Under the pieces are notes generated by a model that saw only the letters and a program-made list of their open reading frames with translations, had not been told where the DNA came from and ran no database searches. Position numbers and translations under genes: made by a program. From a virus: DNA of 64,000 nucleotides. This document shows, in pieces, positions 1 through 63,903 of this stretch. Where the stretch lies: IMG/VR virus record IMGVR_UViG_3300045988_165705; one strand, written 5' to 3'. The stretch's first letter is position 1. Each line of letters starts with the position of its first letter.

Positions 1-936
1 GGTGCTCCCATCTGACCAACGATAATCCGCAGTCGGAGTAAATGTGGCATTGTAATTACCAGCGTTCGTTCCTGATGTGGCGCCTCCGATGGTAGTCTTG
101 GTAGCACTGTAGTTGCTCCAAGTGGGAGACTGGCTGTTTCCGTTATAAGTCAGCGTGCCGCTTTGTGAAGGAACCGTAGCAATGGTAATACGATTCGCCT
201 TACCCGTGGTTCGCTGAGAGGTGGATGTGTTGATACCGCCGTCCGTAGTCTCGGGATAGAAACTGATGTAGTATGTCGTTCCGTTTGTCAACCCTGTAAT
301 GGACAAAGGCGTGGAAGCGTACTGGTTGCGGGTGGTGACCTTCAGTGTATATGCTGCGTCTTCATCATCCTTGCTCGTTGCATAACTGCCAGCCTTTACC
401 ACGATGGTAGTACTCGCCCAGGTAGCCAGTGTAACGCCATCGGATGTGATAGTTGCTGCGGGGTCAGTCCACTTAACGGTCATCTTCCCATTACCGGCCT
501 CTTGGGATGCTGTCATACCGGTTACATTCCAGCTTGAAATACCTGTGACTTGAACAGTGGGAGTTGCATTAAATACATTCTCTTCGCTGTCCGTGTAAGC
601 ACCGGCTGTAGTGTAGGGGAAAAACTTATAGTAATAGGTCACGCCGTTGGAAAGACCGCTGTCGCAAAAATACGAAGTCTTGTAGGCATCTCGTGTTTTG
701 CTGTCCAGCACGACCGTGCCGTCCCGGCGGCTCTTGGGGGCAGAGCCAGCCTTACGAACAAGCTGAGTGCCGCCCCATGCTGCAAGTGCAGCGCCTGACA
801 CCACAATGTCAGAGGGGTCAGTCCACTTTACATATGTCTTGCCGGAAGCAACAAGCACATTGATATCGGAAACTGCACCAAGCGTCAAGCCACCGCCGGA
901 GCCAGTTCCGCCCGGGAAGTTGGAAATAATAGGCAT
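1..936 (-). CDS. Tail-fibre/receptor-binding-like protein with FN3-like repeats (C-terminus lies beyond the window edge)
   Basis: ATG at 934-936 is preceded by AAAGGAGG on the minus strand. The frame stays open to position 1, so it is absent from the ORF track (no stop in the window). N-terminus is MPIISNFPGGTGSGGG. Two repeats carry KWTDP...TYY(Y/I)..F(F/Y)P, as in fibronectin-III-like modules. Confidence 0.6.
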   Translation of the reverse strand, partial: MPIISNFPGGTGSGGGLTLGAVSDINVLVASGKTYVKWTDPSDIVVSGAALAAWGGTQLVRKAGSAPKSRRDGTVVLDSKTRDAYKTSYFCDSGLSNGVTYYYKFFPYTTAGAYTDSEENVFNATPTVQVTGISSWNVTGMTASQEAGNGKMTVKWTDPAATITSDGVTLATWASTTIVVKAGSYATSKDDEDAAYTLKVTTRNQYASTPLSITGLTNGTTYYISFYPETTDGGINTSTSQRTTGKANRITIATVPSQSGTLTYNGNSQSPTWSNYSATKTTIGGATSGTNAGNYNATFTPTADYRWSDGST

Positions 937-35596: not shown

Positions 35597-35672
35597 TGGT
35601 TGCGGGCACCGGAGTTGAACCGATTCCTCAAGGTTTATGAGACCTGCGACTTAACCGCTTGTCCTGCCCGCA
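35597..35672 (-). tRNA. tRNA-Met: tRNA-Met/Ile2 (anticodon CAT)
   Basis: Hand-folded cloverleaf: 7-bp acceptor stem, T-arm ATCGG/TTCAACT/CCGGT, anticodon loop CTCATAA, CCA encoded. The D-stem has only 3 bp and there is one C-T mismatch in the anticodon stem. Confidence 0.75.
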
Positions 35673-35675
35673 ATA

Positions 35676-35761
35676 TGGTGGGAGAGGTTGGATTTGAACC
35701 AACGCAGCCCGAAGGCGGCAGATTTACAGTCTGCTGTAATTGACCGCTCTACCACTCTCCC
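35676..35761 (-). tRNA. tRNA-Tyr: tRNA-Tyr (GTA), class II
   Basis: Acceptor GGGAGAG/CTCTCCC. Anticodon arm GCAGA-CTGTAAA-TCTGC. Long variable arm. T-arm GTTGG-TTCAAAT-CCAAC. CCA encoded. Confidence 0.9.
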
Positions 35762-35767
35762 AAAGTA

Positions 35768-35843
35768 TGGTGAGGTCGGAGGGAATCGAACCCATCGTTA
35801 CCGCCGTGAAAGGGCGGTGTCTTAGCCGCTTGACCACGACCCC
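35768..35843 (-). tRNA. tRNA-Glu: tRNA-Glu (TTC)
   Basis: Acceptor GGGGTCG/CGACCTC. Anticodon arm CCGCC-CTTTCAC-GGCGG. CCA encoded. The T-stem has an internal mismatch. Confidence 0.75.
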
Positions 35844-35894
35844 GTGTAAAAAACTTATATTCTGCGTCAAAGCGAATGCGGCGGGGTGGAGGGG

Positions 35895-36009
35895 TTAGAC
35901 GCAGAAGCCGAAAGCGACGCCACAACTGAAGCTGGCGAAGCAACGGCTGGCGGAGCCGGAGCTGTAGACACAACAGAAAAAACCGCTGTCGCCAGAATAA
36001 GGAGAACGC
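35895..36009 (-). repeat. Variable-repeat-like segment, copy 2 (partner 55125..55239)
   Basis: 115 nt, about 89 percent identical to 55125-55239 in reverse complement. All 13 differences fall in 8 codons, and almost all are at first or second codon positions. Confidence 0.8.
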
Positions 36010-36212
36010 TCCCACCAGTCGTTAGCGGAGCCACCTTTGTTCTTTACCTTCGAGTTGCCCGCCTTGTAATAGGCGTACTGCGTTCCTTCGCCGGAGACGG
36101 AGTAGGTGTGCCGAAGCCCAACAAAATCAGAAGAGGGCTGCCCATCACGGACAGCCCTCGCGGGTTGTTTATTGAAGAGGAACGCTGTAAGAGCAACGGA
36201 CTCCATCTGCAT
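35895..36212 (-). CDS. Small lectin-like (WW.RSP...GV.FGFC) protein carrying a DGR-type variable C-terminus
   Basis: The C-terminus WWERSPYSGDSGFFCCVYSSGSASRCFASFSCGVAFGFCV is paralogous to the end of 54580..55239. Start is uncertain (ATG at 36212, 36206 or 36245, none with an RBS). It overlaps the 3' end of the 36169..37335 gene and could be a truncated copy. Confidence 0.5.
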   Translation of the reverse strand: MQMESVALTAFLFNKQPARAVRDGQPSSDFVGLRHTYSVSGEGTQYAYYKAGNSKVKNKGGSANDWWERSPYSGDSGFFCCVYSSGSASRCFASFSCGVAFGFCV

Positions 36213-37335
36213 CGCAGACGCATACCATCTGTTCCGCTTTCCCATAGATTCGCTTCTGCACGCAGTAGTCGTCCATACCGAGAAAGCTTCCTGCCATAAT
36301 GGTTTTAACGCCCTGCACTTCATCCATTTTGTTATGATGCAAGTGCCCGGACAACACAGCGTACAGCGGGGTTCTTGCCATTGTCTGCAATGCCTGCACT
36401 TTGCTGGCGGAACCATCAAAATCTCCGTGGACGCCACAGTATGTCTTGCCACGGATATTGATAAGATACATGGTGCTGTCGATTTTGACGGAGCTTCCTT
36501 CCGCTGCACCGATAGTTACATTCTCAAAGTTTTGTAATCGTGCGCCGAGATACCACTCGACCAAGTCATCTAAACGCTCGCTGAGCAAAGCGTCATCCTT
36601 GTTTGGCGTAATGCGGCTGTGATTACCCGCCACACTAACAAACACCACAGACTTGAAATGCTTGCTCAGTTCGGCAATAAACTCTGCAATCAATTCTGAA
36701 ACGCCCTTGATTTGCTCAATCACATTTTCTTTGTTGGTGATGGCAATAGACTGATGAATGTTCCCGCTGATAGCGTCGCCATTTGACCAGACGATACAGT
36801 TCTCACTGCCATGAGTCTCACCAATAGCGATGACCTTATCCAGATACCGGCACATCATCTCTCGGCACACATTTGAGTTGTATGTATTCCAATGGTTGTC
36901 CACATCCGCGCCATAGTGAATATCATTGAGGCTGACCAACAGGTCGTTGTCAGACGGCTCGATGTGGCACGGCTCATAGGCAAGGCGAGGTAAATTTCCG
37001 TTCCTGACTGCCTCCACAAGAATCTCGTTAAGTTCCTCCTGTCGGGAACGCTCACGAATCAGTTTGTTGAATGCATTTCTCTGGTCAAAGAACTTCTGCC
37101 GCTCCTTAAGCAGTTCAATGCGTCTGGCCTCCAATGCAGATAACTGCTCTTCGTCGCATACGGCAGCCTCGCCATCACGCTCGATAGCTTCGATGATAGT
37201 ACGCATCCCGTACATCCGCTTCCGGACTTCACTGGAGTTGAAGCAGTTGCCCTCACCAAACAGACGCTCACTCAAGTCCTCGTACTCATCGTCTATGGTG
37301 TGGTCAACCAACTTTCCCATAACGATGTCGCGCAT
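36169..37335 (-). CDS. Metallophosphoesterase (calcineurin-like) with coiled N-terminal region
   Basis: Motifs NDIHYG, NGDAISG, AGNHS, GHLHH and VHGDFDG fit the MPP metal-binding pattern. Confidence 0.7.
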   Translation of the reverse strand: MRDIVMGKLVDHTIDDEYEDLSERLFGEGNCFNSSEVRKRMYGMRTIIEAIERDGEAAVCDEEQLSALEARRIELLKERQKFFDQRNAFNKLIRERSRQEELNEILVEAVRNGNLPRLAYEPCHIEPSDNDLLVSLNDIHYGADVDNHWNTYNSNVCREMMCRYLDKVIAIGETHGSENCIVWSNGDAISGNIHQSIAITNKENVIEQIKGVSELIAEFIAELSKHFKSVVFVSVAGNHSRITPNKDDALLSERLDDLVEWYLGARLQNFENVTIGAAEGSSVKIDSTMYLINIRGKTYCGVHGDFDGSASKVQALQTMARTPLYAVLSGHLHHNKMDEVQGVKTIMAGSFLGMDDYCVQKRIYGKAEQMVCVCDADGVRCSYSVPLQ

Positions 37336-45610: not shown

Positions 45611-46420
45611 AAAGGCGGTCACGCTAAGACAGCCCTATGGCTAATCCTGAGTATTCAGGCAACCTTGCCACTGTCCGAGTGGGTGGAAACCCACTAAAAC
45701 CTCTAATCGGTTTAGCACCGGTTTTGAGGGGAACACCGGTGCAATCTGAGTTTGAGGCGGATTGCGATATTGATTATACAAGTTCCCCTGCCTAATGCAG
45801 CCTTTGGCGGTCACAAGCCCGCATGAGAAATGCAGAGTGGGTATTGTCAGAGGAATATAAGCGGAGATGTCCGCCACTTCCATGACAGGCAATACAAGTT
45901 GCGGTACTGTTCCCAGACAACTATAAAAATCAGGGCACTTGTAATCCGCAAGGATAAATAATGGATGGTAGTCCGACTGAGGGACTATAAAGCGCAGTTT
46001 ACCCGATAAATTCGGGCGTCGCCGGTGCATGAGAGTTAGGCTCATGGTACGAGATAGTGAAAATCCCCGGAGGTTTGCGCCTATGAACCTAAGTGCGGCT
46101 TGCATAACTGATGGCTATACAAGAACGACTTTTGAAAGTAAGTAGTATCGTCCGAGTTTTCTACCCAAGGGTATTGTGCTCCGAGGAGCCGAAAGCAAGG
46201 GCATATAGATATGAAAGCCGAATTTGGTCAAGTATTGCGAATTGAACAGAACAGTCCCCGATAGAAATGAGTATCGGAAATGGTGCGTGTTCCGTTCGAT
46301 ACTGCAACGGCTGTGGGGCAAAATATACCCCATGCGCCGAAATGCAGAGCCGGAACCATTTCAAATATCGGGTTTATCATTGATAGAGCCGCCGAGGGTT
46401 TTTCTTCGGCGGTTTCATTG
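45611..46420 (+). ncRNA. Candidate long structured ncRNA (ORF-free, hairpin-dense)
   Basis: No ORF of 60 aa or more with an RBS on the plus strand. More than 10 local hairpins, for example GTGGGT-GGAA-ACCCAC, CACCGGT...ACCGGTG, GCGGA-GATG-TCCGC, CATGAG...CTCATG, CCGATA...TATCGG and GTGATAA...TTATCAC. It ends in a terminator-like hairpin at 46388-46419 followed by TTTCATT. The family was not recognised. Confidence 0.35.
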
Positions 46421-47916: not shown

Positions 47917-48422
47917 TTTCCCAGTTTGCTGCCTTTCACCGTAACACCGTCGAACTCAGCGCAATAATTGCAGGGTTTCCAAATTGAAAACGACAGGGGT
48001 TTCAGAACGGTAATGGTGAAAGGTTTGCAGGCGCATAGGAGGCGACATGGTCTGGCGATTCGGCATTCCCGGAGTCTTTGAAATCCGCCGGTATGGCTTT
48101 GGCGGAATGTATCTGATTATCTGGGAAACATGGTTCACCTTAAAGCGAGGTTCGATGCCGTAAGGCTGGCACGGTACGATTCCGTGGAGTGGTTTCCCAC
48201 TTAACGCTTAGTCCTTGTATTAGTGAAGGTAAGTGAGGGGGCACCCAAAATTCTGAAAGCTTTACAAGGCGTTGGGGACTACGAAAGTGTCCAAGTGTTA
48301 TGGAAATGCTGCCATGACCACGGGATATGATTAAGAAAGTGCATCCTTGGAAGTTGGAGTATTACGGCTATAGCCGTCGGGTGAAACTTCCTCCCGTTAT
48401 CAACAATGGAAGGGAGCTTATC

Positions 48423-50772: not shown

Positions 50773-50862
50773 GGGAAAGTGGCGAAACGGTTAGACGCGG
50801 GGCGAGTAGAGCCCTGGGAGGTTGCGCACCCCTTGTTGGTTCAAATCCAACCTTTCCCACCA
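50773..50862 (+). tRNA. Class II tRNA-like gene, paralogue of tRNA-Tyr with a non-canonical anticodon loop (GAGTAGA)
   Basis: Perfect 7-bp acceptor GGGAAAG/CTTTCCC. The T-arm and 3' end are identical to the tRNA-Tyr at 35676-35761. Long variable arm, CCA encoded. However, there is no nucleotide 26 and position 33 is A rather than U. Confidence 0.55.
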
Positions 50863-50989
50863 ATAGGGAACGATGTTCGTGCTTTGTTTCTGGAGCAAAG
50901 AATGTCCTGTATTTCCAGAATGCAGGAAGCAGCAAAGTGGGGAACATCATGCGGCTGAGTAGCAAGGGGTTCTAAGCCGCTTCTGAGAT

Positions 50990-51065
50990 GGGGATATAGC
51001 TCAGTTGGGAGAGCATCTGCTTTGCACGAAGAGGGTCGCCGGTTCAAGTCCGACTATCTCCACCA
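50990..51065 (+). tRNA. tRNA-Ala: tRNA-Ala (TGC)
   Basis: GGGGATATAGCTCAGTTGGGAGAGC 5' half, G3:U70 pair, anticodon loop TTTGCAC, CCA encoded. One mismatch each in the anticodon stem and the T-stem. Confidence 0.85.
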
Positions 51066-51490
51066 AAAGCCCACTTGAAATGATATATAGTGGCTGGGTC
51101 AGCGACTACGCTGGGCGGAAGATAACGGGATATGAGCGCTGGATGCTCTGGCACCGCCTTAACAAAAGCAAATCAAGCCGGTGAGAGATAGTTAATCGCC
51201 TAAAAGCTCAAGGGCATGAGCACCAAACCATGTCGTAAACCAGAACCGGCGGGACTAAGCAGGGGTTTGGGTGGTATGTGCCTACCACGCTCCATCTGTA
51301 GCTTGCCTTTTATATCGCAAGTGAGGTGTAGCTAAGACTGGTAATAAGAAATGTCGGCACATCGTCTTTGCCAGAGGCGAGGATGACATACACACAGAGC
51401 ATGGGTGAGGTTCCGGCAAACTTAGGTTTAGGCCGGAGTGTATGGCAAGGGCGAGGACACCAAACATGACTTTGGTAAGGAGGCAAAAGC

Positions 51491-51691
51491 GTGGAGCGTA
51501 ATGATTTTATATCTGGTGATGCGTACTACCGATACAAATTTGAGCGTGAAAGCAAGAACGAAGAAATCCAGCGCCTCCGTACAAAGATGGAGCGAATGAG
51601 AACCGACAACTATGTTCGAGTAGCTTATGACAGCGTCGTAATAACGGTTCTTGTCGCATTTATAGCCTTTCTCTTGGTGGGTAGAGGCTAA
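51491..51691 (+). CDS. Small membrane-anchored protein
   Basis: GTG start 7 nt after AAGGAGG. C-terminal hydrophobic helix VVITVLVAFIAFLLV. Confidence 0.5.
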   Translation: MERNDFISGDAYYRYKFERESKNEEIQRLRTKMERMRTDNYVRVAYDSVVITVLVAFIAFLLVGRG

Positions 51692-51716
51692 GAACAATTC
51701 ATGAGGAGGGACGCCG

Positions 51717-52529
51717 ATGAGCAGCAAGATGAACTACATACCATACATATCTTCCTACGAGGATATTCGAGCCGAAATGAGCAACGACTTGCAGTATAGG
51801 CTGGCGAACAGGACTGTCAGAACTTCTCTCGGACGCCCTCTCTATTATCGCATCAATGTCCAGATGATTACGACACAGGAGTGTCCGTTCCACTGCCCCT
51901 TCTGCTTGGAACGACAGAATCCCATGTCGGGAGACAATGATTTTGATGCACAAATCGAGGCGTTGAGGCGGGTTTTGCTGGAGCATCCCAACGCACGGTT
52001 GTCTATCACGGGCGGCGAACCCGGCCTTTATCCCAAGCACATCGCCAATATCGTTGAGACTTATCGTAAGAACGGTAATGGTGTGTTTTGTTCCATCAAC
52101 ACTACGGGATTCAGCACGGAACTGAATGGGCTGGCGCACATCAACCTTTCCCGCAACGACTATGTCTGGACAGACCCGGCTGGTTTTCCGGGGTGTACTG
52201 TCCAAACGATAGTTGAGAATCCTACGCTTACTTTTATCAAGGACTACATGAAGATGGATGCCAGCAGCTTTTCTTTTCGGTTCCTGAGCGGCCTTGAAAA
52301 GAAAGATTACCCTGTAGATATTTGGAATGATTTGCAGCAGGACGCAGATGTCGATGTGCATACATTCAGAATCGGCGATTTCTTTGTGTATGCAACCTTT
52401 GACTATGCAGGAAAACACGCTCGTGTAACACTCGGTGATATGTGGCAGCAGCGTCACAATGATTACGGTGACGGCTATTCCAATATCATCATCCATCCGG
52501 ATGGCCGTGTGTCCACCAACTGGAGATAA
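51717..52529 (+). CDS. Radical SAM enzyme (function unknown)
   Basis: CPFHCPFC (CxxxCxxC cluster motif) and SITGGEPGL (SAM-binding GGE motif). GAGGAGGG RBS. 270 aa with no SPASM-type extra Cys clusters. Confidence 0.8.
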   Translation: MSSKMNYIPYISSYEDIRAEMSNDLQYRLANRTVRTSLGRPLYYRINVQMITTQECPFHCPFCLERQNPMSGDNDFDAQIEALRRVLLEHPNARLSITGGEPGLYPKHIANIVETYRKNGNGVFCSINTTGFSTELNGLAHINLSRNDYVWTDPAGFPGCTVQTIVENPTLTFIKDYMKMDASSFSFRFLSGLEKKDYPVDIWNDLQQDADVDVHTFRIGDFFVYATFDYAGKHARVTLGDMWQQRHNDYGDGYSNIIIHPDGRVSTNWR

Positions 52530-52542
52530 ATGGAGGGTTAAA

Positions 52543-52704
52543 ATGCGTCGGATAAGAGTACATATCGACATTCCCAACAAGACAGTTGTCGTTAAACGGG
52601 GTTTCTTCGGTTCTGCCGTCCAGTATTCTGGTGGATGGTGGGATGATTACTCCATTGCCGAAATCATCAAGCATTTTGAGGAGGAAGAAGATGGACGAAG
52701 ATAA
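52543..52704 (+). CDS. Hypothetical small protein
   Basis: GGAGGG RBS. 53 aa. It overlaps the next gene's start by 14 nt. Confidence 0.45.
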   Translation: MRRIRVHIDIPNKTVVVKRGFFGSAVQYSGGWWDDYSIAEIIKHFEEEEDGRR

Positions 52705-53014
52705 GATTGCTGATACCCTCAATGTCGGCGATAAGGTCGAATGCGTTCGGGACTCGCCGGACAATAATGATAGCATCGCTATTGGAATGCAGGGAGTTAT
52801 CTGTGTTATCGTTGAGTCCTCCCCGCACATCGGAGTCAGATGGAACGAAGAGGTTGTTGGAGGCCATGACTGTCAAGGGGCGTGCTCTCGTGGATACGGG
52901 TGGTTCGTTACGGCAAGCGATATTAAGCGTATTGACGACAATGACGAGTTTGAAGTTGATGCAACAGAACTGGACAAGCTCTTTGAAACTTTCACAAAGG
53001 AGGCCATCTCATGA
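52691..53014 (+). CDS. Hypothetical protein (SH3-like beta-rich domain)
   Basis: GAGGAGGAAG RBS. 107 aa with VGDKVECV...GMQGVICVI...IGVRWNEEV.GGHDCQG.C..GYGWFV. Confidence 0.55.
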   Translation: MDEDKIADTLNVGDKVECVRDSPDNNDSIAIGMQGVICVIVESSPHIGVRWNEEVVGGHDCQGACSRGYGWFVTASDIKRIDDNDEFEVDATELDKLFETFTKEAIS

Positions 53015-53223
53015 CGGTTTTGGATTTTATAAGAGCGCACTTTTCGCTGGACTCTCAGGTCGATAACCTGCTGGTTCGGCGCAACACAGACGGTTTCTGC
53101 GAGACGCTTTATAGCGGTGCTATCGATGACGAGCGTTACATGAAGCCCGAAGTAAAGTGTGCCACAATCAGAAAGTGGTGCCTTCCTCGGCGTGGGAGTT
53201 CCGTTATCCTTATTGTCGAGTAA
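53011..53223 (+). CDS. Hypothetical small protein
   Basis: ATGA overlap coupling with the upstream gene. 70 aa. Confidence 0.45.
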   Translation: MTVLDFIRAHFSLDSQVDNLLVRRNTDGFCETLYSGAIDDERYMKPEVKCATIRKWCLPRRGSSVILIVE

Positions 53224-53238
53224 AGGTTCTGGCCTTAT

Positions 53239-53325
53239 GCGGGTATGCTGGAATCGGCAGACAGGCAAGCTTGAGGTGCTTGTGCCCATCAGGGCGTGTG
53301 AGTTCAAATCTCACTACCCGCACCA
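53239..53325 (+). tRNA. tRNA-Leu: tRNA-Leu (GAG)
   Basis: Acceptor GCGGGTA/TACCCGC. Anticodon arm CAAGC-TTGAGGT-GCTTG. Long variable arm. T-arm GTGAG-TTCAAAT-CTCAC. CCA encoded. Confidence 0.9.
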
Positions 53326-53453
53326 CGGAGCCCTTCTAACAAATATGACTGGGGCAAGATTACCGGCTAACGGCTTTCCAATAGAGAGTACGCCTGTAAT
53401 GACAAAATAGTTAGTCAGATGGTGGTTGGCTGACCTAAAGGCCACTTTCAGAC

Positions 53454-53537
53454 GCAGGATTGGTGGAATTGGCAGACACGGCGGATTCAAGTCCCGCTGC
53501 CTTCGGCGTAAGAGTTCAAGTCTCTTATCCTGCACCA
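53454..53537 (+). tRNA. tRNA-Leu: tRNA-Leu (CAA)
   Basis: Acceptor GCAGGAT/ATCCTGC. Anticodon arm GCGGA-TTCAAGT-CCCGC. Variable arm with a TTCG loop. T-arm AAGAG-TTCAAGT-CTCTT. CCA encoded. Confidence 0.9.
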
Positions 53538-53687
53538 TTAGCTTTGCCACGGTGTTGTGTCCTTTCAGTAGCTCCCTCCTTTTCGTCCGTCGTTCATCGT
53601 TTTCCTTTCAAACGGCAAAGCTGCTGTGGAATCCAAGCGTGTCCACCATTCAGGGCGCACCGTAACAGCCGGTTTATGCTTCCGTAG

Positions 53688-53763
53688 CTCAGTTGGTAGA
53701 GCACCGCCCTTTTAAGGCGGGTGTCATGGGTTCAAGCCCCATCGGGGGCACCAATTCTATTTC
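53688..53763 (+). tRNA. tRNA-Lys: tRNA-Lys (TTT)
   Basis: Canonical D-arm TAGCTCAGTTGGTAGAGC. Anticodon arm CCGCC-CTTTTAA-GGCGG. T-arm ATGGG-TTCAAGC-CCCAT. CCA encoded. Two G-U pairs in the acceptor stem. Confidence 0.9.
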
Positions 53764-53781
53764 GTGAGGAGGTCATCTATC

Positions 53782-54447
53782 ATGGGGGTTCATATTTATG
53801 TGGCCGCAAATACAGTGTGGGCTTTTTTTCAAAGCCATAAAGACCGCCTGTCAAAGGAGATGGTCGTCATTGCAGAGAACAAGGACACAGAGTATGCGGT
53901 ATATCTTACCGAGGATAATGCGCTTCCTTTGTTTTCCGTGTGTAAGGGCGATGCAAAACCGGAGTATGAGGAGTGTGTTCTGACCGAGACAGGTTGTAAT
54001 GAAGCGGCGAAACGCCTGTATGCACAATATCTTTTCCCTGTCATGGTTGTTGATGGGAAGAAATGCCCGCCGGAATTGCCGGAGGAAGAACCAGAAGATT
54101 TGACTCGGCAGGATATGGAGGATGCTCAGTATGAGCGCGAGGACGAGCTTTCTCTCGCTCTGTGTGATTTCCTGTCCGTTGTCTTGCAGGAGTCGATAGA
54201 CAACAGTCCTGAAATCATGGATACATACGGAGAAATGTTTGTAAACGAGGTCTTAGACCACTTCTTGGAGTACCTCGCTCAGGAGCAGTGCCTGCCAATT
54301 TACCGCCCCATGATTATCACGGATGAAGAAACTGGCTGCGAGGTCTATACGGAGTTTCCGTATGAGGATGATGCTGGTTATCCAGTGGATGATGAAGAGT
54401 TTAGTGGAGGCTTTTGGGATGATATTAAGGGCGGCGGTCTGAGATGA
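53782..54447 (+). CDS. Hypothetical highly acidic protein
   Basis: Start moved to the ATG after GAGGAGG, because the track start at 53764 abuts the tRNA-Lys. 221 aa, very Glu/Asp-rich in the C-terminal two thirds. Confidence 0.6.
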   Translation: MGVHIYVAANTVWAFFQSHKDRLSKEMVVIAENKDTEYAVYLTEDNALPLFSVCKGDAKPEYEECVLTETGCNEAAKRLYAQYLFPVMVVDGKKCPPELPEEEPEDLTRQDMEDAQYEREDELSLALCDFLSVVLQESIDNSPEIMDTYGEMFVNEVLDHFLEYLAQEQCLPIYRPMIITDEETGCEVYTEFPYEDDAGYPVDDEEFSGGFWDDIKGGGLR

Positions 54448-54463
54448 CCCGCCCTTCTTTTAT

Positions 54464-54554
54464 GGGGAGTTGGCCGAGTGGCTTATGGCGGCGGTCTTGA
54501 AAACCGTTGACGGTGATGAGCCGTCCGTGGGTTCAAATCCTACACTCCCCGCCA
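54464..54554 (+). tRNA. tRNA-Ser: tRNA-Ser (TGA)
   Basis: GGGGAGTTGGCCGAGTGG 5' end. Anticodon arm GCGGT-CTTGAAA-ACCGT. Long variable arm. T-arm GTGGG-TTCAAAT-CCTAC. CCA encoded. Confidence 0.9.
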
Positions 54555-54579
54555 CATTTTTTGATTGGAGGTCTGTGAA

Positions 54580-55239
54580 ATGCCAAACTGTTTGGATAGT
54601 ATGCCATGGCGTTCCTTAAAGGGGCTTGGAAAATATGCGGCTGATTTCTTGCAGCTCGGAGATTACCGCAATGTTGTGCTGAAGAACGGTGCGCAGGTTC
54701 AGTTTCGCATCATCGGCTTCAATCACGACAAGACGAGCGACGGTTCTTTGGCTCCTATCTCTTGGGAGATGGTGGATTGTCTGCCTAACACTTACCCCTG
54801 GAACAGGCGCGACACCAATGAAGGGTCGTGGGAAGCAACGCAGATTCGCCATCGGCTCAACGATGCGGATGGCGACATTCATCGTCTGATTCCCGACGAG
54901 ATTTTGGATGTTGTCACACCAGTCATTAAGCAGACAGCTGATGTGTACACTGGCGAGAATCGTATTATCGAGACGCTGGACTCTTTCTGGATAAAGTCTG
55001 AGAAGGAATTGTATGGACGCAATATTTACTCCGCTCCCGGTGAGGGACATTGGTACGAGTGGTATCGTCAGGAAGATGTCGCATGGTTTAAGCTCCGCAA
55101 CGGCAATCCTGAGTACACCATGTTGCGTTCTCCTATTTCTGGCGACAGCCGTTTTTTCTGTTGTGTCTACGGCTCCGGCGGCGCCAGCCGTTACTACGCC
55201 AGCTACAGTTGTGGCGTCGCTTTCGGCTTCTGCACTTAA
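54580..55239 (+). CDS. DUF6273-like lectin-fold protein carrying a DGR-type variable C-terminus
   Basis: GGAGG RBS. N-terminal half (LGDYRNVVL...FRIIGFNHD...ISWEMVD...W..T.IR..LN) and C-terminal LRSPISGDSRFFCCVYGSGGASRYYASYSCGVAFGFCT fit the ...WLRSP...GV.P.F.. domain type. The last 115 nt repeat at 35895-36009. Confidence 0.75.
   Translation: MPNCLDSMPWRSLKGLGKYAADFLQLGDYRNVVLKNGAQVQFRIIGFNHDKTSDGSLAPISWEMVDCLPNTYPWNRRDTNEGSWEATQIRHRLNDADGDIHRLIPDEILDVVTPVIKQTADVYTGENRIIETLDSFWIKSEKELYGRNIYSAPGEGHWYEWYRQEDVAWFKLRNGNPEYTMLRSPISGDSRFFCCVYGSGGASRYYASYSCGVAFGFCT
55125..55239 (+). repeat. Variable-repeat-like segment, copy 1 (partner 35895..36009)
   Basis: See the partner entry. The invariant stretches GTTTTTTCTGTTGTGTCT and GTTGTGGCGTCGCTTTCGGCTTCTGC contain no adenine at all. 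Confidence 0.8.
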
Positions 55240-55240
55240 A

Positions 55241-55268
55241 GCTGCATGGCGTAGCCATCAGCTTTTGC
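55241..55268 (+). terminator. Hairpin plus T-tract immediately after the variable repeat
   Basis: GCTG(C)ATGGC-gta-GCCATCAGC followed by TTTTGCC, starting 2 nt after the stop codon. Confidence 0.55.
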
Positions 55269-55431
55269 CCGAACCAGCAAAATCAAATGGCTTTTTACAA
55301 GCGCCCGGCGCTCCGCAAAGGAGACCGGGCGCGTTTCATACCCACAACGGCTCCAACCTCCTCGTGGTGTGGGCGGATAACCGAAAGGCGAACAAATAGG
55401 AGTACATCAGTATTGAAGGAGTACATACATC

Positions 55432-55830
55432 ATGGCAAAAATCACTATCGCAGGCGACGCAGCTGTCGTAACTTCCGCAATGAAGCTGGAGGACATCAAG
55501 ACCATTGAGAAGTATCGTCCCAAGGAGCTGGTTCTCAAGGGTGGCGAGGACGGCAAGGAGCCTATCTTCGCTGTGGGTACCACCAATGGTGCCGGTAACA
55601 TCAACGCTTTCGGTGCTTCTTTCGGCGCTGAGACCCGCGACGATGAGAAGCTGGCGTGCATCACCCTGTTCCTCGACGGCGTGACCGGCGATGTTAAGGA
55701 CTGGGTCGCTGACCGTCTGGGCGCCGCCATCATCAGCCTCAACAAGCTTGAGGAGAAGCTGCCTGCCGTCCTCGATGAGATTGCGGCTGAGAAGGCAAAT
55801 GTGCTGAGCAACATCACGGTCGCTCAGTAA
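55432..55830 (+). CDS. Hypothetical protein
   Basis: GAAGGAG RBS. 132 aa. Followed by hairpin GGGGCGGC-tcat-GCCGCCCC (55845-55864). Confidence 0.65.
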   Translation: MAKITIAGDAAVVTSAMKLEDIKTIEKYRPKELVLKGGEDGKEPIFAVGTTNGAGNINAFGASFGAETRDDEKLACITLFLDGVTGDVKDWVADRLGAAIISLNKLEEKLPAVLDEIAAEKANVLSNITVAQ

Positions 55831-55910
55831 TCACTGGTCGCAAAGGGGCGGCTCATGCCGCCCCCCTTCCGTTCACAACAAAACAAATTTTGAATTAAAG
55901 GAGAAACATT

Positions 55911-56138
55911 ATGATTAAGGTTACTGTTGGCAACAATGTCAAGCGCGAGTCCGTTATCATCGACGAGTCCACCACCCTGCGTGCCTGTCTGGAGGCGAAC
56001 GGTGTTGACTATACCCGTGGCGTCATGCACCTCGACGGGTCTTCCCTGAACCCCGGCGACCTCGACAAGACCTTCGCTCAGTTCGGTATCACCGAGAAGT
56101 GCTTCCTGCTGAATGTGGTCAAGGCCGATAACGCCTGA
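55911..56138 (+). CDS. Small ThiS/MoaD/ubiquitin-like (beta-grasp) candidate
   Basis: 75 aa. MIKVTVGNN..ESVIIDESTTLRACLEANGVD......LDGSSL.PGDLDKTF.....EKCFLLNVVK follows the strand-helix-strand pattern and the L.(D/P)GD motif of ThiS-like proteins. The C-terminus is ...KADNA, with no GG. Confidence 0.45.
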   Translation: MIKVTVGNNVKRESVIIDESTTLRACLEANGVDYTRGVMHLDGSSLNPGDLDKTFAQFGITEKCFLLNVVKADNA

Positions 56139-56160
56139 TTCACAAGCAATAGACCAATTG

Positions 56161-56186
56161 AGCCGCCCATTCGGGCGGCTCTTTCT
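56161..56186 (+). terminator. Rho-independent terminator
   Basis: AGCCGCCC-attc-GGGCGGCT followed by CTTTCT. Confidence 0.7.
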
Positions 56187-56188
56187 AT

Positions 56189-56273
56189 GGGGAATTGGCG
56201 GAACAGGCAGACGCTGCGGACTTAAAATCCGCTGGTGCATACCATATCGGTTCGACTCCGATATTCCCCACCA
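56189..56273 (+). tRNA. tRNA-Leu: tRNA-Leu (TAA)
   Basis: Acceptor GGGGAAT/ATTCCCC. Anticodon arm GCGGA-CTTAAAA-TCCGC. Long variable arm. T-arm ATCGG-TTCGACT-CCGAT. CCA encoded. Confidence 0.9.
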
Positions 56274-56301
56274 TATAACAAAATGAATAGAGGTGTTCCT
56301 A

Positions 56302-57761
56302 TGTTCAAAACAAGCATTTCGTCAACGCCGTTTACCACGGAAGCTGCCAATAGCTACTTTACCAACATCACCGGCGGTGCTTTCGGCAACGACTGCTCTT
56401 TCCTTGCGACGCTTCGTGCCTTAGTTGCACCTCGAATCAAAGAGGGAGAGTCCGTCAATCTGCTGTTCGGCTCTTCTGATTATACGGCAGACACGATTCG
56501 TAGTGTTCCGGCGGACAGAGCCGTTTCGGCTATCTGCAACAACTATGATATGAGCGCAACCGGTCAGGTTATTATTCATAGTTTGCGGGCAGACTCGGAC
56601 AGCAATCTTGCCAACATGAAAATCATCGCCGACAAGTTTGCCTCTGTGTATGCGGGGTATCATCGCCTCGAAAAGTTCGCAGAGTTCTACCGCAAGTCTT
56701 TTGCTGTGGATTGCTACATCAACCCTGAGCTTAAGAGCGTTATTATCTTTGCGGACAATCTCGACATCCGTAAAATGCATTACTTGCAGGTTTCCATCCT
56801 TGCATTCCTGCCGTGGTATCTGAACCAGCAGGAGGGCATCACCGAGGATGAGCTTGCGTTGGTCAAGTCCCTTCGTGAAAAGAACTCGGAAGAGTATGAA
56901 CACTGTCTTGCCAAGCTTGCGGAACGGTATGATTTCCGAACTGCAAGAATCCGTCAATTGCTGAAGGGGTTTGAGACCCGCTACGAGCAGATTGAGTGTG
57001 ACCGGGTCAGACAGATGATTCAGAACATCGACCGAGAAATTACCCGTCTGAATGACAACATCGGTGAGCAGTTCACAAAGCGTAACGAACAGTGCATTCG
57101 CTTGCTGGGTCTTGAGCAGAAAGTTGCCGATGGCGGTGAGGACTCCGAAATCATGGAGTACTTCCTGTGCAATACCAAGCTGGTTCTGGAGCGAGTGACC
57201 AACACCGATATGTATTTCACAGTCAAGGATTGCCTGGAGTATTTCGACCGGGATATGGCGGAGCAAATCATCAATCGTGCTACCAGTTTTGTGTACCGTC
57301 CTGATGGTGGTTCCGGCCACACAGGCGCAGCCGCTGAAAAGATGAAGAAGCTGATGACCGAAATCTTTGTCAGCGAGGAGCCGCGTCTGAAAATCCGTGT
57401 CTGTGCATCGTATCGCTTTGACCTCAATGGTAGTGTTTCTCCGCAGGGACATCGAAGCTTTGGCGCGGAGTACGCTGATTACCTTCCCAATCCCCATATC
57501 AACGACTACAACTGCATGGGCAACTATACCACCACTATCAACAGGCTCCTCAAAAATCACGATTACATCGGTGCTTTGGAGCAGTGTATTGCTTCTTGTA
57601 AGAGCCTTAACTGGGGCGACTCTGCGGTCATGACTTCGTTTATGCGGTCTATGTGGGGCAACGGCAGCAACAATCGCTGCATTGAACTGCCTGATGGTCG
57701 TGTTGTAAAACCCAACGAAGCCATCACTTGGTTGGAGCAGCAAGCACAGACAAATGAGTAA
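56302..57761 (+). CDS. Hypothetical 486-aa protein (possible E2-like C-terminal region)
   Basis: Start moved past the tRNA to the ATG after AGAGGTG. The only functional hint is LPNPHINDYNCMGNY, which loosely recalls the E2 HPN...C active-site pattern. It sits between the Ubl candidate and the JAB gene. Confidence 0.65.
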
Positions 57762-59451: not shown

Positions 59452-60261
59452 ATGGATACTACCGTCGAACGCCTTAAGGTCGGGACACCGGTCATCATTG
59501 GTTCTTACGGTGTCAACAACGATGAGCCGCACCCTGTTGTTTGGCTGAAAGGTAGTCCAAACTGCGATTTTATCACCGAGTGCGCCGTGGATTATCTTTG
59601 CTTTGATGCACCGGAAAGAACTGGAGACGGCAGGTGCAATCTTGGCAATCCCGACTATCGTCTGTCCAATATTCATACATACCTAAACAGCGACAGAGAC
59701 GATTGGTTTCGCAAAACTCATGAAGCAGATGCCCCTCCGAATAATGTTTTCAGCAACCGAGCACAAAGCTATCGCAACCATTATGGGTTTCTATATTTCT
59801 TTGAAGATTATGAACTCGATAGCTTGCAGATGCAGCAGTATGTGGTTGATGGTGAGACGCTCAGTTCCATCATTCGACTTCCTACTATCACCGATATCCT
59901 TGATGACCAGTTGAAGCTGAAGCTGTTTTCCAAGAAGGGTATTCGTCCCAAAGCAACAGAAGACTGTGCTGATAAAAAAGGCCGGTTTGGTAATTTCAGT
60001 TGGGAGTCTTACATGAACTTCTGGTTGGCAGGCAAGCAGGATGAATTCAGAGGCTATGCTTTGACTCTTAGTAGGTCTGGGTATTGTGAGAGGAAATATC
60101 CCCGTGACTGTGCGGGGCTTAGGCCGATGTGCCGGTTGAAACCGGAAACAGTGGTAGAGGTTGATGAAAACGGCGTAGCCCACATCAAACCATACGCATT
60201 GAAAAACGAAACCTGCACAGATGCAGAACTGTTCGAGCTATTAGGTGTGGCGCAGCCTTAA
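59452..60261 (+). CDS. DUF6273-like lectin-fold protein (third paralogue, no shared variable repeat)
   Basis: LKVGTPVIIGSYGVNNDEPHPVVWLKG...L.....IHTYLNSD and C-terminal FWLAG......GYALTLSRSGY.......CAGLRPMCRL fit the same domain type as 54580..55239. There is no nucleotide identity to the 115-nt repeat. Confidence 0.7.
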   Translation: MDTTVERLKVGTPVIIGSYGVNNDEPHPVVWLKGSPNCDFITECAVDYLCFDAPERTGDGRCNLGNPDYRLSNIHTYLNSDRDDWFRKTHEADAPPNNVFSNRAQSYRNHYGFLYFFEDYELDSLQMQQYVVDGETLSSIIRLPTITDILDDQLKLKLFSKKGIRPKATEDCADKKGRFGNFSWESYMNFWLAGKQDEFRGYALTLSRSGYCERKYPRDCAGLRPMCRLKPETVVEVDENGVAHIKPYALKNETCTDAELFELLGVAQP

Positions 60262-60273
60262 AATGCGCCATTG

Positions 60274-60597
60274 AACTGTAACGAATTACCCTTTTCGGGG
60301 GCTTCACGCCAAAGGCTGAAGTAACAAATTGTCGGGGAGGAAAACACCGCCTGCCCAGAAGGGTAACCAGCGACTCCTCCGGAGTCATCAGGTGCTTTGG
60401 ACATCCACCAGGAAACCAACAGCCGGAATAGCACAGCAGACCTGGCTTGTCAAGTCCTATCCTTCACAAAACCCACCCAAATCACGACAATTATCCTCAA
60501 CTCAACTAAAAAGATACAGGCAAATGCAGCTCACTCAGCTCGCTGCAGATGAGCTTCTTTTGATTCAAACGCAGCAACACTCATGTAGGTTACAGTT
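60274..60597 (+). ncRNA. Retron msr/msd-like ncRNA module 1
   Basis: Terminal inverted repeat AACTGTAAC (60274-60282) / GTTACAGTT (60589-60597), with G at 60283. Hairpin CTTCA-CGCCAAAGGC-TGAAG (60302-60321), then GTAACAA. TGTAGGTT lies before the 3' repeat. The module ends 7-28 nt before the RT start. Confidence 0.6.
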
Positions 60598-60624
60598 ACG
60601 ACTATGAAAAGGAGGCATAGGGCG

Positions 60625-61761
60625 ATGGTATATATCACGGTCATGCAATCCCCGATTTATCACCAAATGACACTGGAAGAGTTCCTCTTTCAAAACTTCC
60701 AAGCGCCAACCATATTAAACACAAATGTTTCTAATACACGAACCTATGCATATGAAACGGTAAGTGAGCATTTCACAAGCCGCATTGATACGAACGCTCT
60801 TATCTGCAAACTGGTGCGCTTTAATGAGCAAACGGAGGCGCTTCGCGCACAGGAACGCAGTACTTTGTATGAAACATTCCACATCCCCAAAAAGTCTGGT
60901 GGTTTGCGTCGTATTGATGCTCCTAAACCGGAGCTGATGAACGCATTGCGGAATCTCAAGACTATTTTTGAAGAAGATTTCCATGCATTGTATCACACTT
61001 CTGCATTCGCCTATGTAAAAAACAGATGTACGGTTGATGCGGTCAAGCGCCATCAGAAAAACAACAGCAAATGGTTCGGCAAGCTGGATTTGCACGATTT
61101 CTTTGGTAGCACCACGCTGGATTATGTTATCAAAATGTTTTCTATGGTGTTCCCATTCAGCGAAATCGTAAAGTTTCCCAACGGCGAGGCAGAGTTGCGG
61201 AAGGCCTTGGATTTGGCTTTTCTCAATGGAGGTCTGCCGCAGGGAACTCCACTTTCTCCGCTGATTACCAATGTGATGATGATTCCTGTTGACTATAAGC
61301 TTGCCAATGCATTCCGTGATTTTGACAAGCAGCGGTTCATTTACACCAGATATGCCGATGACTTCATCATTTCGTCTAAGGTTGATTTCGATGTGCATCG
61401 TGTAGAAAAACTCGTGGTGGATACGCTGCATGAATTTGGAGCGCCGTTCACCATCAACGAAAGCAAAACGAGATACGGCTCTTCCGCAGGTCGTAACTGG
61501 AATCTTGGTGTTATGCTCAACAAGGACAATGAAATTACTGTCGGCCATAAGAAGAAGCGCCAGTTCCAGTCCATGCTTTACAACTACATTACCGATAAAC
61601 GCAAGGGCATCTCGTGGCCGAGAGAAGATGTGCAAACTATGCAGGGCTTACATAGCTACTATCGCATGGTAGAGCCGGAGACTATCGATGCCATCGTGAA
61701 GCACACCAACGAAAAAATGGAGACAGATGTCCTGCGGCTTATCAAAGACGATTTAAGATAA
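60625..61761 (+). CDS. Retron-type reverse transcriptase
   Basis: Motifs IPKKSGGLRRIDAP, AFAYVKNRCTVDAVKRH (NAxxH-like), KLDLHDFFGST, GLPQGTPLSPLITN, YTRYADDFIISS, INESKTRY and LGVMLNKDNEITVGHKKKRQ (region-Y-like). It has QG..SP, not the DGR (I/L)G...SQ motif. Start placed at the ATG 9 nt after AAGGAGG; the ATG at 60604 is also possible. Confidence 0.85.
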   Translation: MVYITVMQSPIYHQMTLEEFLFQNFQAPTILNTNVSNTRTYAYETVSEHFTSRIDTNALICKLVRFNEQTEALRAQERSTLYETFHIPKKSGGLRRIDAPKPELMNALRNLKTIFEEDFHALYHTSAFAYVKNRCTVDAVKRHQKNNSKWFGKLDLHDFFGSTTLDYVIKMFSMVFPFSEIVKFPNGEAELRKALDLAFLNGGLPQGTPLSPLITNVMMIPVDYKLANAFRDFDKQRFIYTRYADDFIISSKVDFDVHRVEKLVVDTLHEFGAPFTINESKTRYGSSAGRNWNLGVMLNKDNEITVGHKKKRQFQSMLYNYITDKRKGISWPREDVQTMQGLHSYYRMVEPETIDAIVKHTNEKMETDVLRLIKDDLR

Positions 61762-61792
61762 TCCCTTTGGCGGTTTGGGGTTAAACCGCCAT

Positions 61793-62066
61793 TTCCTGTA
61801 ATGGATAATTGCGAAAGCAATGCTTATCGCCAAAGGCATAAGTAACAACTTGCTGGGAAGGAACACCCCGCCTCTTCCTGAAGACCGGCTGCCGACGCGG
61901 CTGCGACCCAATCGGGCTCGGCATCAAGCATGGAAAATAGAGTCAACGGTCATTGCGGCACAATGAATCCCACACCAGCAGAGAATTAAAATAGGAACTA
62001 ACCGCACCTGCAATGCGCTCCAGGCGCCTCGCATCCGGCACGCTTATCCTATGTAGATTACAGGAA
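61793..62066 (+). ncRNA. Retron msr/msd-like ncRNA module 2
   Basis: TTCCTGTAAT (61793-61802) / ATTACAGGAA (62057-62066), with G at 61803. GNRA hairpin ATTGC-GAAA-GCAAT. Hairpin CTTAT-CGCCAAAGGC-ATAAG (61823-61842), then GTAACAA. TGTAGATT lies before the 3' repeat. Confidence 0.6.
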
Positions 62067-62075
62067 CACCAAAAT

Positions 62076-62378
62076 CATTTGCAATGAATAACATCCCGAA
62101 AGGAATGTGCTTTGCGCCAAAGGCCAAAGTAACAATTTGTTGGGAAAGCAAAGGCCGCCCGCCACGAAGGCGGAACGAAGGTTCAGGACTCATCGCCGAA
62201 GAGATACACCTCGGTAGAAACCGAGCAGCAAAAGCACGAGATATAGCAAGGTCGATAAACCACTGAGCCACAGGCGCTTCCCCACATTACCAAATTCCCG
62301 TGGAAACCACCGACCCGAGCAGCCGGGCCGTCGTCCGGTACCGGTCTCCAGGTACACGCTCCGTGTAGATTGCAAATG
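62076..62378 (+). ncRNA. Retron msr/msd-like ncRNA module 3
   Basis: CATTTGCAAT (62076-62085) / ATTGCAAATG (62369-62378), with G at 62086. Hairpin ACATCC-CGAAA-GGAATGT. Hairpin CTTTG-CGCCAAAGGC-CAAAG (62110-62129), then GTAACAA. TGTAGATT lies before the 3' repeat, which ends 19 nt before the next gene's start codon (RBS GAAAGGAA lies between). Confidence 0.6.
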
Positions 62379-62397
62379 AAGAAAGGAATCAGATTCC

Positions 62398-63099: not shown

Positions 63100-63748
63100 A
63101 CGCTACAAATTACAGACAGGATGCCGACCTCTCAAATGGCGGAGACCGATGCGCTGTAAGGTCATGCGGGGTGCAAATCCCCGCCATCTGCGCTACCGGC
63201 ATGGCATTGCCGTGGGAAGGACATAATGTTTCTCCAGAATTATGCCGGTGTGCCGACACATAGAAAGCGGCTGGGCAATGCGGAGCCTGTAGAGACAAAA
63301 TCCGTAGAATATTGAAGCGGCAGGCGTTCCGTCATGCGTTTACCGTGGAGTTCCAAAGGGTTGTGCGTATTCCTCAAGGCGGATAGGTGAGAGCCAAAAG
63401 AAAACGCACTGCAGATACAGACCTGCGTTACCAAAGGTGTCGCGCTGGCAGACCGCAAGTTCGCAATAGTCTGCCACTTATACGGGCGAATGTTCCAAGG
63501 CTGGCGAGGCGGTCTCCAAAACCGCTTGTGGTGGGTTCGATTCCCAACCGTCCATGCCAGAGGCTGGGTAGCGCCCAGATGATGTGAGAGATTATCGGCT
63601 TACCTCACAGAGAATGACAATGCCCGCTGAAAACTGCGCGAGGAGATGCGTCTCCCTTGTGATTTAGCCCAAGAGTGGCCGGTTGGTATGCTTGCGGGGC
63701 GCCAGCTGCACATGAGCGTGTGACAATCTAAGCGGGAAGCCGACCAAT

Positions 63749-63824
63749 GCTGGAATAGCTCAATTGGTAGAGCAACGCTCTCGTACAGCGTAGGTTCTCG
63801 GTTCGACTCCGAGTTCCAGCTCCA
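63749..63824 (+). tRNA. tRNA-Thr: tRNA-Thr (CGT)
   Basis: Acceptor GCTGGAA/TTCCAGC. Anticodon arm ACGCT-CTCGTAC-AGCGT. T-arm CTCGG-TTCGACT-CCGAG. CCA encoded. Confidence 0.9.
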
Positions 63825-63827
63825 TTT

Positions 63828-63903
63828 GCTGGTGTAGCTCAGTTGGTAGAGCATCGGTTTTGTACTCCGAGGGTCGCGGGTTCGAGCCCTGTCACCAGCT
63901 CCA
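63828..63903 (+). tRNA. tRNA-Thr: tRNA-Thr (TGT)
   Basis: Acceptor GCTGGTG/CACCAGC. Canonical D-arm. Anticodon loop TTTGTAC. T-arm GCGGG-TTCGAGC-CCTGT. CCA encoded. Confidence 0.85.

Follow-up and report, generated by a model that had tools for sequence, protein, structure and literature searches.

Two near-identical gene ends in a large gut phage as probable variable regions of one diversity-generating retroelement

Background

In the established model of a diversity-generating retroelement (DGR), the RNA of a template repeat (TR) would be copied by a reverse transcriptase (RT) with random misincorporation opposite adenines, and the product would rewrite a variable region (VR) in a target gene. 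Downstream of the VR, at a distance of 4-34 bp, lies a hairpin or cruciform with a GC-rich stem of 7-10 bp and a GRNA loop (Guo et al. 2011). In phage DGRs, targets away from the cassette but inside the same prophage are common, mostly at distances of up to ~50 kb, and the 5' limit of mutagenesis varies from target to target with the extent of homology (Wu et al. 2018, NAR, PMC5758913). The DNA considered here, a stretch of 64,000 nt from the IMG/VR virus record IMGVR_UViG_3300045988_165705 (the window), contains two distant copies of one repeat: one at the 3' end of a plus-strand gene (54580..55239), and the other on the minus strand near 35.9 kb. With a probability of roughly 0.93, these two repeats are VRs, here called VR1 and VR2, of one canonical DGR in a large (~108-131 kb) SPbeta-like gut phage or prophage.

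Four things are demonstrated below: a TR/VR relationship with adenine specificity, the confinement of changes to codon positions 1 and 2, hypervariation restricted to the VR in near-identical strains, and an RT with DGR-type motifs. The apparent anomaly of VR-like repeats that have neither a template nor a DGR RT is a textbook DGR cut by the edge of the window, and thus no new or retron-driven mechanism of diversification is needed.

The repeat pair in the window

A sequence-only reading of this DNA had described the last 115 nt of two genes as near-identical, with strongly diverged coding sequence upstream. This is borne out: positions 55125-55233 (+) align without gaps to 36009-35901 (-) over 109 nt, with 91.7% identity (E=2.6e-37). 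The number of differences over the 115 nt is 12, not 13 as then counted. Nine of them (55135, 55136, 55150, 55171, 55180, 55181, 55193, 55196 and 55205) fall in the block that is homologous to the TR, and for every one of these the earlier assignment to codon position 1 or 2 holds. The other three make up the last codon, ACT/GTC (55234-55236); this codon lies beyond the end of the TR homology and represents ordinary divergence.

No third copy of the repeat was found in the window with blastn-short at word size 7. An ungapped scan with the 78 invariant positions of the repeat likewise found nothing there, its best score outside the VRs (39-40/78) being noise. The earlier observation that neither a TR nor a DGR-type RT occurs in the window is correct. 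The idea that either window copy serves as the TR of the other was rejected, since the mismatches are not one-sided at adenines.

The cassette beyond the window edge

The TR and the RT seem to be missing because the window edge cuts the cassette off. The cassette was read from near-identical metagenome contigs, and the window coordinates given for it are extrapolated. The related contigs represent a ~108-131 kb phage genome that recurs in many assemblies of human-gut metagenomes, and their overlap with the window is exact wherever it was compared (the first 312 codons of the primary target and the product of the VR1 gene). The order of the cassette, which stands at the end of the tail module, is a 669-aa primary target with a VR (VR0), a 155-aa open reading frame (ORF) similar in size to Avd, the accessory variability determinant, a 135-nt TR, a 248-nt spacer, and a 394-aa RT.

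The primary target is the gene that the window edge interrupts. Its first 312 of 669 codons occupy 1..936 (-) and are identical (312/312) to the gene at 12448-14457 of contig L008, the contig closest to the window. The product is a tail-module protein with a DUF6273 domain in its C-terminal part (Pfam, 54.6 bits); by eye, its N-terminus also shows what look like two FN3-like repeats. VR0, located by the template scan, lies at the 3' end of this gene, at extrapolated positions -960 to -1067.

For that scan, a template was predicted by setting every variable site to A, which gives AAC and AAT codons. Neither the window nor the ~9 kb beyond its 3' end gave a hit. Past the 5' end (contigs L009-L011), it found a TR that matches 75-78 of the 78 invariant positions and has A at 29-30 of the 30 variable sites. 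This TR spans extrapolated positions -1779 to -1913, within the ~440-nt gap between the 155-aa ORF and the RT. Thus, the template with AAT, AAC and AGC codons that the sequence-only reading had predicted is present in the genome, in near-identical contigs past the window edge, ~1.8-1.9 kb beyond window position 1 and beside a DGR-type RT. It is non-coding, rich in adenine, and composed largely of AAC and AAT codons (its translation would be RSPNSGNSNNFCNVNSNGNANNNNANNSNGVAFGFC); 31 of 32 assemblies carry it as ...AAT TCT GGC AAC AGC AAT AAT TTC TGT AAT GTC AAC AGC AAC GGC AAC GCC AAC AAT AAC AAC GCC A(A/G)C AAC AGT AAT...

The 3' ends of TR and VRs differ in a fixed manner. In VR0, VR1 and VR2 alike, 6 nt separate the end of the VR from the stop codon. 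TR position 102 is A in 31 of 32 TRs and C in 100% of the VR alleles, and position 108 is T in all TRs and C in every VR allele compared. These two positions are fixed 3'-end differences which, judged from the sequences, are of the IMH*/IMH (initiation of mutagenic homing) type. A (GC)14 tract in the style of phage BPP-1 is absent from the VR and TR 3' ends. An inverted repeat of 9 bp with a loop of ~30 nt follows VR0 and VR2, and none follows the TR (z=+1.6).

The 155-aa ORF is conserved and basic, and occupies the position of Avd between target and TR; it may be the Avd of this element. Its 'FPKRY...' segment resembles the four-helix-bundle motif of Avd and 23S-IVS proteins.

The 394-aa RT (extrapolated -2162 to -3346) begins 248 nt downstream of the TR. 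Its ORF is intact and contains the motifs LGSQVSQ and YMDD. The best PDB match is 8ub7_A (328 aa, E=6e-19), in which IGSLTSQ aligns to LGSQVSQ and YMDD is shared; 8ub7_A is probably the RT (bRT) of Bordetella phage BPP-1. The protein also matches PHROG 1423 (273 bits), and the tblastn hits, which include RTs of Roseburia, Faecalibacterium and Bordetella phages, reach 49% identity at most, the 49% being to an unannotated phage fragment from human faeces. These matches and motifs place the enzyme, by sequence, in the DGR clade.

Adenine specificity across assemblies

The variation of the element was surveyed by searching the JGI collection with the VR 3' end and pooling the results with loci already fetched, which gave ~86 loci. 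The canonical TR, with 34 adenines and 74 other bases, served as the reference for adenine sites. Among 73 distinct VR alleles, there are 1,322 substitutions at the 34 adenines versus 32 at the 74 other bases. VR0 contributes 33 distinct alleles from 37 loci, VR1 30 from 32, and VR2 10 from 17, and the number of VR loci in a complete contig is exactly three. The earlier proposal of a single DGR with two distant, lectin-like C-termini as targets is supported as to the DGR and its adenine-specific retrohoming, with the correction that the loci number three. Apart from a few outlier alleles, the varying columns are at codon positions 1 and 2; in the full census, position 3 accounts for 2-11 of the 34-47 varying columns per locus.

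The TR itself hardly changes. Of 32 TRs, 31 are canonical or 1-2 positions away from canonical, and in a set of 14 assemblies the TR is nearly invariant and VR0 is present as 13 distinct alleles. When each TR in this set is compared with the VR0 of its own assembly, 12-25 mismatches are seen in 13 assemblies and 36 in L067. All of these mismatches are at A, except for the fixed 108T>C, one extra non-adenine change each in L009/L010, L063 and L064, and the outlier L067. Mutagenesis per adenine ranges from 6 to 86% in the census.

The VR1 locus shows how sharply the variation is confined. VR1 (55126-55233, +; 108 nt homologous to the TR) forms the 3' end of the 219-aa gene at 54580..55239 (+), which is called in all related contigs. 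Its product matches Pfam DUF6273 weakly (residues 70-213) and belongs to PHROG 37900, the family that also includes the primary target. The locus is ~57 kb from the TR and on the opposite strand. VR1 is different in nearly every sample, and its substitutions relative to the canonical TR are at adenines only, save for the fixed boundary base and rare exceptions; in the window, the sites at which mutagenesis has made it depart from the TR run from 55135 to 55211. In three strains, the VR1 gene and its downstream flank are 99-100% identical except for a 77-nt block filled with substitutions. These three alleles and the minus-strand copy of the window together yield 30 variable sites, which are distributed over codon positions 1, 2 and 3 as 16, 14 and 0. 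Thirteen further alleles from 13 assemblies are all distinct, each with 12-27 changes at adenine sites and at adenines only; the 672 nt outside VR1 (the rest of the gene and 120 nt of downstream flank) show 2-24 differences in the same assemblies. The sequence-only reading had expected population variation at exactly the codons that differ within the window, and strong variation is indeed found there.

VR1 ends in an invariant, adenine-free segment of 21 nt, GGCGTCGCTTTCGGCTTCTGC (55213..55233, +), which all VRs have in identical form, which is IMH-like and whose counterpart in the TR is GGCGTCGCTTTCGGATTCTGT, with two fixed differences. An inverted repeat, AGCTGCATGGC-GTA-GCCATCAGCT followed by TTTT (55240..55263, +), starts 7 nt past the end of the TR homology, within the 4-34 bp range of Guo et al. 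2011. It would form a hairpin of 10 bp with a bulge and a 3-nt loop (DNA fold -16.2 kcal/mol, z=-2.7), and is a candidate target-recognition hairpin and/or terminator. In the proposed mechanism, the complementary DNA made from the TR RNA would replace any segment with upstream homology that is closed by the matching 3' element, namely GGCGTCGCTTTCGGCTTCTGC together with an inverted repeat downstream. Three segments would qualify: the adjacent VR0, VR1 at 55126-55233, and VR2 at 35901-36035. The hairpins would then serve target recognition, and retrohoming may still be active.

A megablast of 54400-56400 against annotated phage records gave no match, nor did an exact 26-mer of the VR core in IMG/VR, where related phages are present; for the segments tested, neither the phage collection nor IMG/VR holds a near-identical record. 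The VR/TR 3' sequence is not carried by GTDB representative genomes, in which a 20-nt pattern (19 specified bases) gave 17 chance matches that scored 35-50/78 on the template scan. A neighbouring gene is indexed in ~4,000 blocks of the collection, and the element is very widespread in human-gut metagenomes.

VR2 and the 250-nt duplicate

The minus-strand copy, previously taken for the end of a second gene, falls short of a full paralogue. It consists of 250 nt that duplicate the 3' end of the 669-aa gene exactly (35859..36108, -; 100% identical to L008 14244-14493), from inside the DUF6273 domain to 36 nt beyond the stop codon. The duplicate sits between a metallophosphoesterase gene and a tRNA cluster, and is found at the same place in many independent assemblies. 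Within it, VR2 (35901..36035, -) comprises 135 nt of TR homology: the 108-nt block plus a 27-nt 5' extension that is common to VR0 and absent from VR1. The distance to the TR is ~38 kb.

The fragment has no in-frame start after the stop of the upstream metallophosphoesterase gene (36169-37335). The sole way to translate it is a 105-aa ORF (35895..36212, -; ATG at 36212), present as a gene call in L012, L013 and L049, which shares 44 nt with the end of the upstream gene and spans a terminator-like hairpin. Its match to the DUF6273 profile covers positions 93-164 of 172 only (26.7 bits). The 105-aa ORF is probably not a functional protein, and VR2 is probably a pseudo-target. Of the earlier suggestion that the 35.9-kb copy is a DGR target, the VR homology stands, and independent diversification of what is a gene fragment is no more than a possibility. 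Because the fragment keeps the full TR homology, an IMH-like end and a downstream inverted repeat, VR2 should, by the criteria of Guo et al. 2011, be able to act as a recipient. Nearly all of its alleles differ from the TR at adenines only. VR2 may be a direct target of the DGR, may be converted from VR0, or may owe its alleles to mis-threading by assemblers.

Several observations weigh against the DGR assignment or parts of it. All of the variation seen is variation between assemblies. The TR, the RT and VR0 lie outside the window and were read from contigs that are identical to it, or nearly so, in the overlap, and at VR2 the window and contig k119_72646 are not the same. The inverted repeats that follow the VRs depart from the canonical form, a GC-rich stem closed by a GRNA tetraloop, and the 155-aa ORF has no match to Avd in Pfam, NCBIfam or the PDB, its sole match being the unannotated PHROG 30516. 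The other points concern VR2. It is less diverse, with one allele that recurs in 6 loci whose VR0 differs; four of its alleles are common to VR0 (none is common to VR1); and VR0 and VR2 are identical in 2 of 7 contigs. In addition, at least one contig, L050, joins the flanks of the repeat, with the 669-aa gene on the left and VR2 on the right, so that some placements of VR0 and VR2 alleles may be artefacts of assembly.

The points on VR2 also favour a narrower alternative, in which VR2 alone is a dead, untargeted 3' fragment whose variety stems either from homologous recombination or gene conversion with VR0, mediated by the 250-nt repeat, or from assemblers that thread VR0 reads through it. 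The lack of a start of its own, the position behind a terminator-like hairpin and the partial DUF6273 domain all agree with such an origin. So does the finding that the VR2 allele of the window occupies VR0 in k119_72646, and that the VR2 of this contig fits the canonical TR and not the contig's own. Some VR2 copies carry 9-12 non-adenine changes, as expected of an unrefreshed fossil, and a 118,462-bp scaffold (scaffold_104) starts and ends within the repeat. However, the retained cis elements and the adenine-only differences of most VR2 alleles speak for direct targeting, and VR2 differs from the VR0 of the same contig in 4 of 7 clearly typed contigs (5 of 7 if the length-shifted VR0 of VOFG01003920 is included). 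The dead-fragment alternative is accordingly a serious one, with a chance that falls somewhat short of even.

As direct repeats ~37 kb apart, the two 250-nt copies enclose the entire module of structural genes, and contigs often end in the repeat. The repeat is an assembly hazard, and is possibly a substrate for recombination. A divergent family of VR alleles, with 9-13 non-adenine changes that include third codon positions, was seen in VR0 of L067 (7314-7421) and in the VR2-type loci of L152 and L124, so that it occupies VR2 in one contig and VR0 in another. A decayed, unrefreshed copy would explain this family, as would a further VR0/VR2 swap.

A lineage-specific template

The TR of L008 (TR_L008; L008 15190-15297, extrapolated ~-1806 to -1913) departs from the others. 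Relative to the canonical TR it has 12 differences, all at adenines and including 102A>C, and it is the sole such TR among the 32. It keeps 22 of the 34 canonical adenines. The window VR1 and VR2 agree with TR_L008 at every non-adenine position in the homologous block, and the VRs of other strains mismatch it at 8-11 such positions. From TR_L008, VR1 differs at 13 positions and VR2 at 16, of which 12 and 15, respectively, are adenines; the exception in each case is the fixed boundary base. VR0 of this lineage has 15 adenine differences and no other in the block. Since the VRs of the lineage track TR_L008 at non-adenine sites, non-adenine information flows from TR to VR. The smaller number of mutable sites in this lineage also explains the low count of differences between the two window copies. 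The unchanged adenines, to which the sequence-only reading had drawn attention, likewise follow from incomplete mutagenesis at each site and from the loss of adenines in the lineage TR.

TR_L008 was considered as an assembly chimera and rejected: VR-like and TR-like positions interleave codon by codon, unlike a k=119 graph chimera, and the VR0 and VR1 of the lineage follow it. Tentatively, and with rather more doubt than belief, we suggest that in the lineage of the window the TR itself was overwritten by an adenine-mutagenised copy that was then propagated to the VRs. This would be natural template drift, through self-homing after a weakening of IMH* or through VR-to-TR conversion, and it would be accompanied by a probably non-functional 250-nt 'decoy' that is perhaps still rewritten. 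If this is true, the decoy would be a natural demonstration of the least that retrohoming requires in cis.

The same template could instead be a sign of decay. In this alternative, the DGR of the lineage is a fossil: its TR has eroded with the loss of 12 of 34 adenines, diversification has ended, and the differences between VR1 and VR2 are historical. It would account for the uniqueness of TR_L008 as the only TR with multiple changes, all of them at adenines, and for the finding that one VR1 allele, and likewise the 'X' allele, was recovered from more than one assembly of the lineage. Yet VR1 and VR0 of the lineage differ from TR_L008 at 12 and 15 adenines, respectively, and at no other base of the block, and thus retrohoming postdates the change in the TR. 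Moreover, the RT ORF is intact with its catalytic motifs, and 22 adenines remain in the TR. A fossil DGR in this lineage is therefore unlikely.

Gene conversion and the retron-type reverse transcriptase

Ordinary divergence of two DUF6273 paralogues plus gene conversion, with no retroelement, can yield paralogous C-termini with a sharply bounded identical block, but it is virtually excluded: 1,322 of 1,354 substitutions fall on 34 template adenines, so that changes in related phages are not spread over A and non-A positions alike, the pattern that the sequence-only reading had named as a sign of such divergence; none of the first 30 variable sites is at codon position 3; a non-coding, adenine-rich template adjoins a DGR-type RT; and VRs that change from almost every sample to the next contrast with a constant TR. 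An equally negligible chance attaches to the idea that the variation is driven by the retron-like RT at 60604-61761, which has in its favour that it is the only RT in the window, but has the motif QGTPLSP, finds its best match in the retron St85 family and has no TR-like sequence nearby, the DGR-type RT being directly beside the actual TR.

This retron-type RT (385 aa, +; phage-encoded) is unrelated to the DGR. QGTPLSP, which it combines with YADD, is a retron/group-II motif. The enzyme scores 177.8 bits against NCBIfam retron_St85_RT, below the 235-bit cutoff, and also matches PHROG 2825. No msr/msd was identified for it. A search for repeats around it (59.4-62.4 kb) found no VR- or TR-like sequence, only an unrelated unit in three copies.

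The three paralogous non-coding units (60262-60603, 61790-62075 and 62076-62397, with the core motif at 60307, 61828 and 62115) flank the RT gene and precede a metallophosphoesterase gene. They have in common a core of ~80 nt: yUGUAAyGnAU, a hairpin, and GCUUnnCGCCAAAGGCnnAAGUAACAAnUUGnnGGG... Two hairpins of the units co-vary between copies (CUUCA/UGAAG, CUUAU/AUAAG, CUUUG/CAAAG) around an invariant loop, CGCCAAAGGC. The unit has no Rfam match. Its exact core was found at 42 loci in ~30 related IMG/VR phage contigs, where the cores are often ~1,520 nt apart, flanking an RT-sized gene, with a tandem copy ~287 nt further on. From this pattern, the unit looks like an undescribed structured RNA, possibly one that is associated with the RT.

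Directly upstream of the retron-type RT, a 269-aa protein (59452-60261, +) ends in ...CAGLRPMCRLKPE and appears DUF6273-like by eye. It has no Pfam hit and no TR homology, and a weak PHROGs match is to Hoc-like head decoration.

Genome context

The genome looks SPbeta-like. It encodes a YonO-type RNA-dependent RNA polymerase (RdRP), YonG, RAGATH and drum RNAs, and no fewer than 12 tRNAs; beyond the window edge, it also has a serine recombinase. The YonO-like single-subunit RNA polymerase is an 846-aa protein with a eukaryotic-type RdRP domain, PF05183 (38440-40980, -), and the YonG-like protein is encoded at 33163-34203 (-). The orphan structured RNAs RAGATH-16 (46002-46072), RAGATH-4 (46249-46383), RAGATH-36 (48167-48295) and drum (63307-63412), all on the plus strand, exceed the Rfam gathering score. 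Three tRNA clusters are present, at 35600-35843 (-), 50773-56273 (+) and 63482-63903 (+), with 12 tRNAs called by ARAGORN and one more by Rfam at 35600-35672. One cluster directly follows VR2, and another directly precedes the VR1 gene.

Comparison with described systems

The DGR described here diversifies a tail-module protein and, 57 kb away, a small stand-alone DUF6273 protein. It provides a natural illustration of TR-to-VR flow at non-adenine positions, and of how short repeats that contain a VR break or scramble metagenome assemblies.

The DGR of BPP-1 (mtd-avd-TR-brt) has the same order of target, small accessory ORF, TR and RT. In both elements, a VR is at the extreme 3' end of a tail-module gene of the receptor-binding type, the template is rich in AAC and AAT, changes are at adenines only and at codon positions 1 and 2, and the RT combines [I/L]GxxxSQ with YMDD. 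In addition, neighbouring tail proteins here carry Mtd_N, the N-terminal domain of the BPP-1 major tropism determinant: two tail-module proteins of 410 aa (4765-5997, -) and 154 aa (1369-1833, -), encoded just upstream of the primary target, have this domain and no VR. Unlike BPP-1, there are three VR loci rather than one, and by sequence the target belongs to DUF6273 rather than to the C-type-lectin family of Mtd. The (GC)14 tract is lacking, the hairpins are without GRNA tetraloops, and the accessory ORF is without detectable similarity to Avd. The phage, at 108-131 kb, is SPbeta-like and from the gut.

One adjacent target combined with distant ones is the arrangement reported for phage DGRs by Wu et al. 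2018, and the different extents of TR homology, 108 nt for VR1 and 135 nt for VR0 and VR2, also agree with that work. In contrast to those elements, VR1 is ~57 kb from the TR, slightly past the ~50 kb given there for nearly all phage cases, and one extra VR is in a truncated gene fragment. The multi-target DGRs of Treponema denticola and Legionella similarly use one TR and RT for several VRs in trans and at a distance; those elements are chromosomal, however, with surface lipoproteins as targets that can be >100 kb away, whereas here everything is in one phage genome. The closest annotated relatives of the RT, at 37-43% identity, are in the DGRs of Roseburia phage Shimadzu and of Faecalibacterium phages, which also have a gut prophage setting. 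They differ in that RT identity is below 50% and their genomes are of 45-54 kb. Together, these comparisons place the element among the multi-target phage DGRs, which are already documented. Its modest extras are a 57-kb, opposite-strand target in a small stand-alone DUF6273 protein, a truncated pseudo-target, and an eroded lineage TR.

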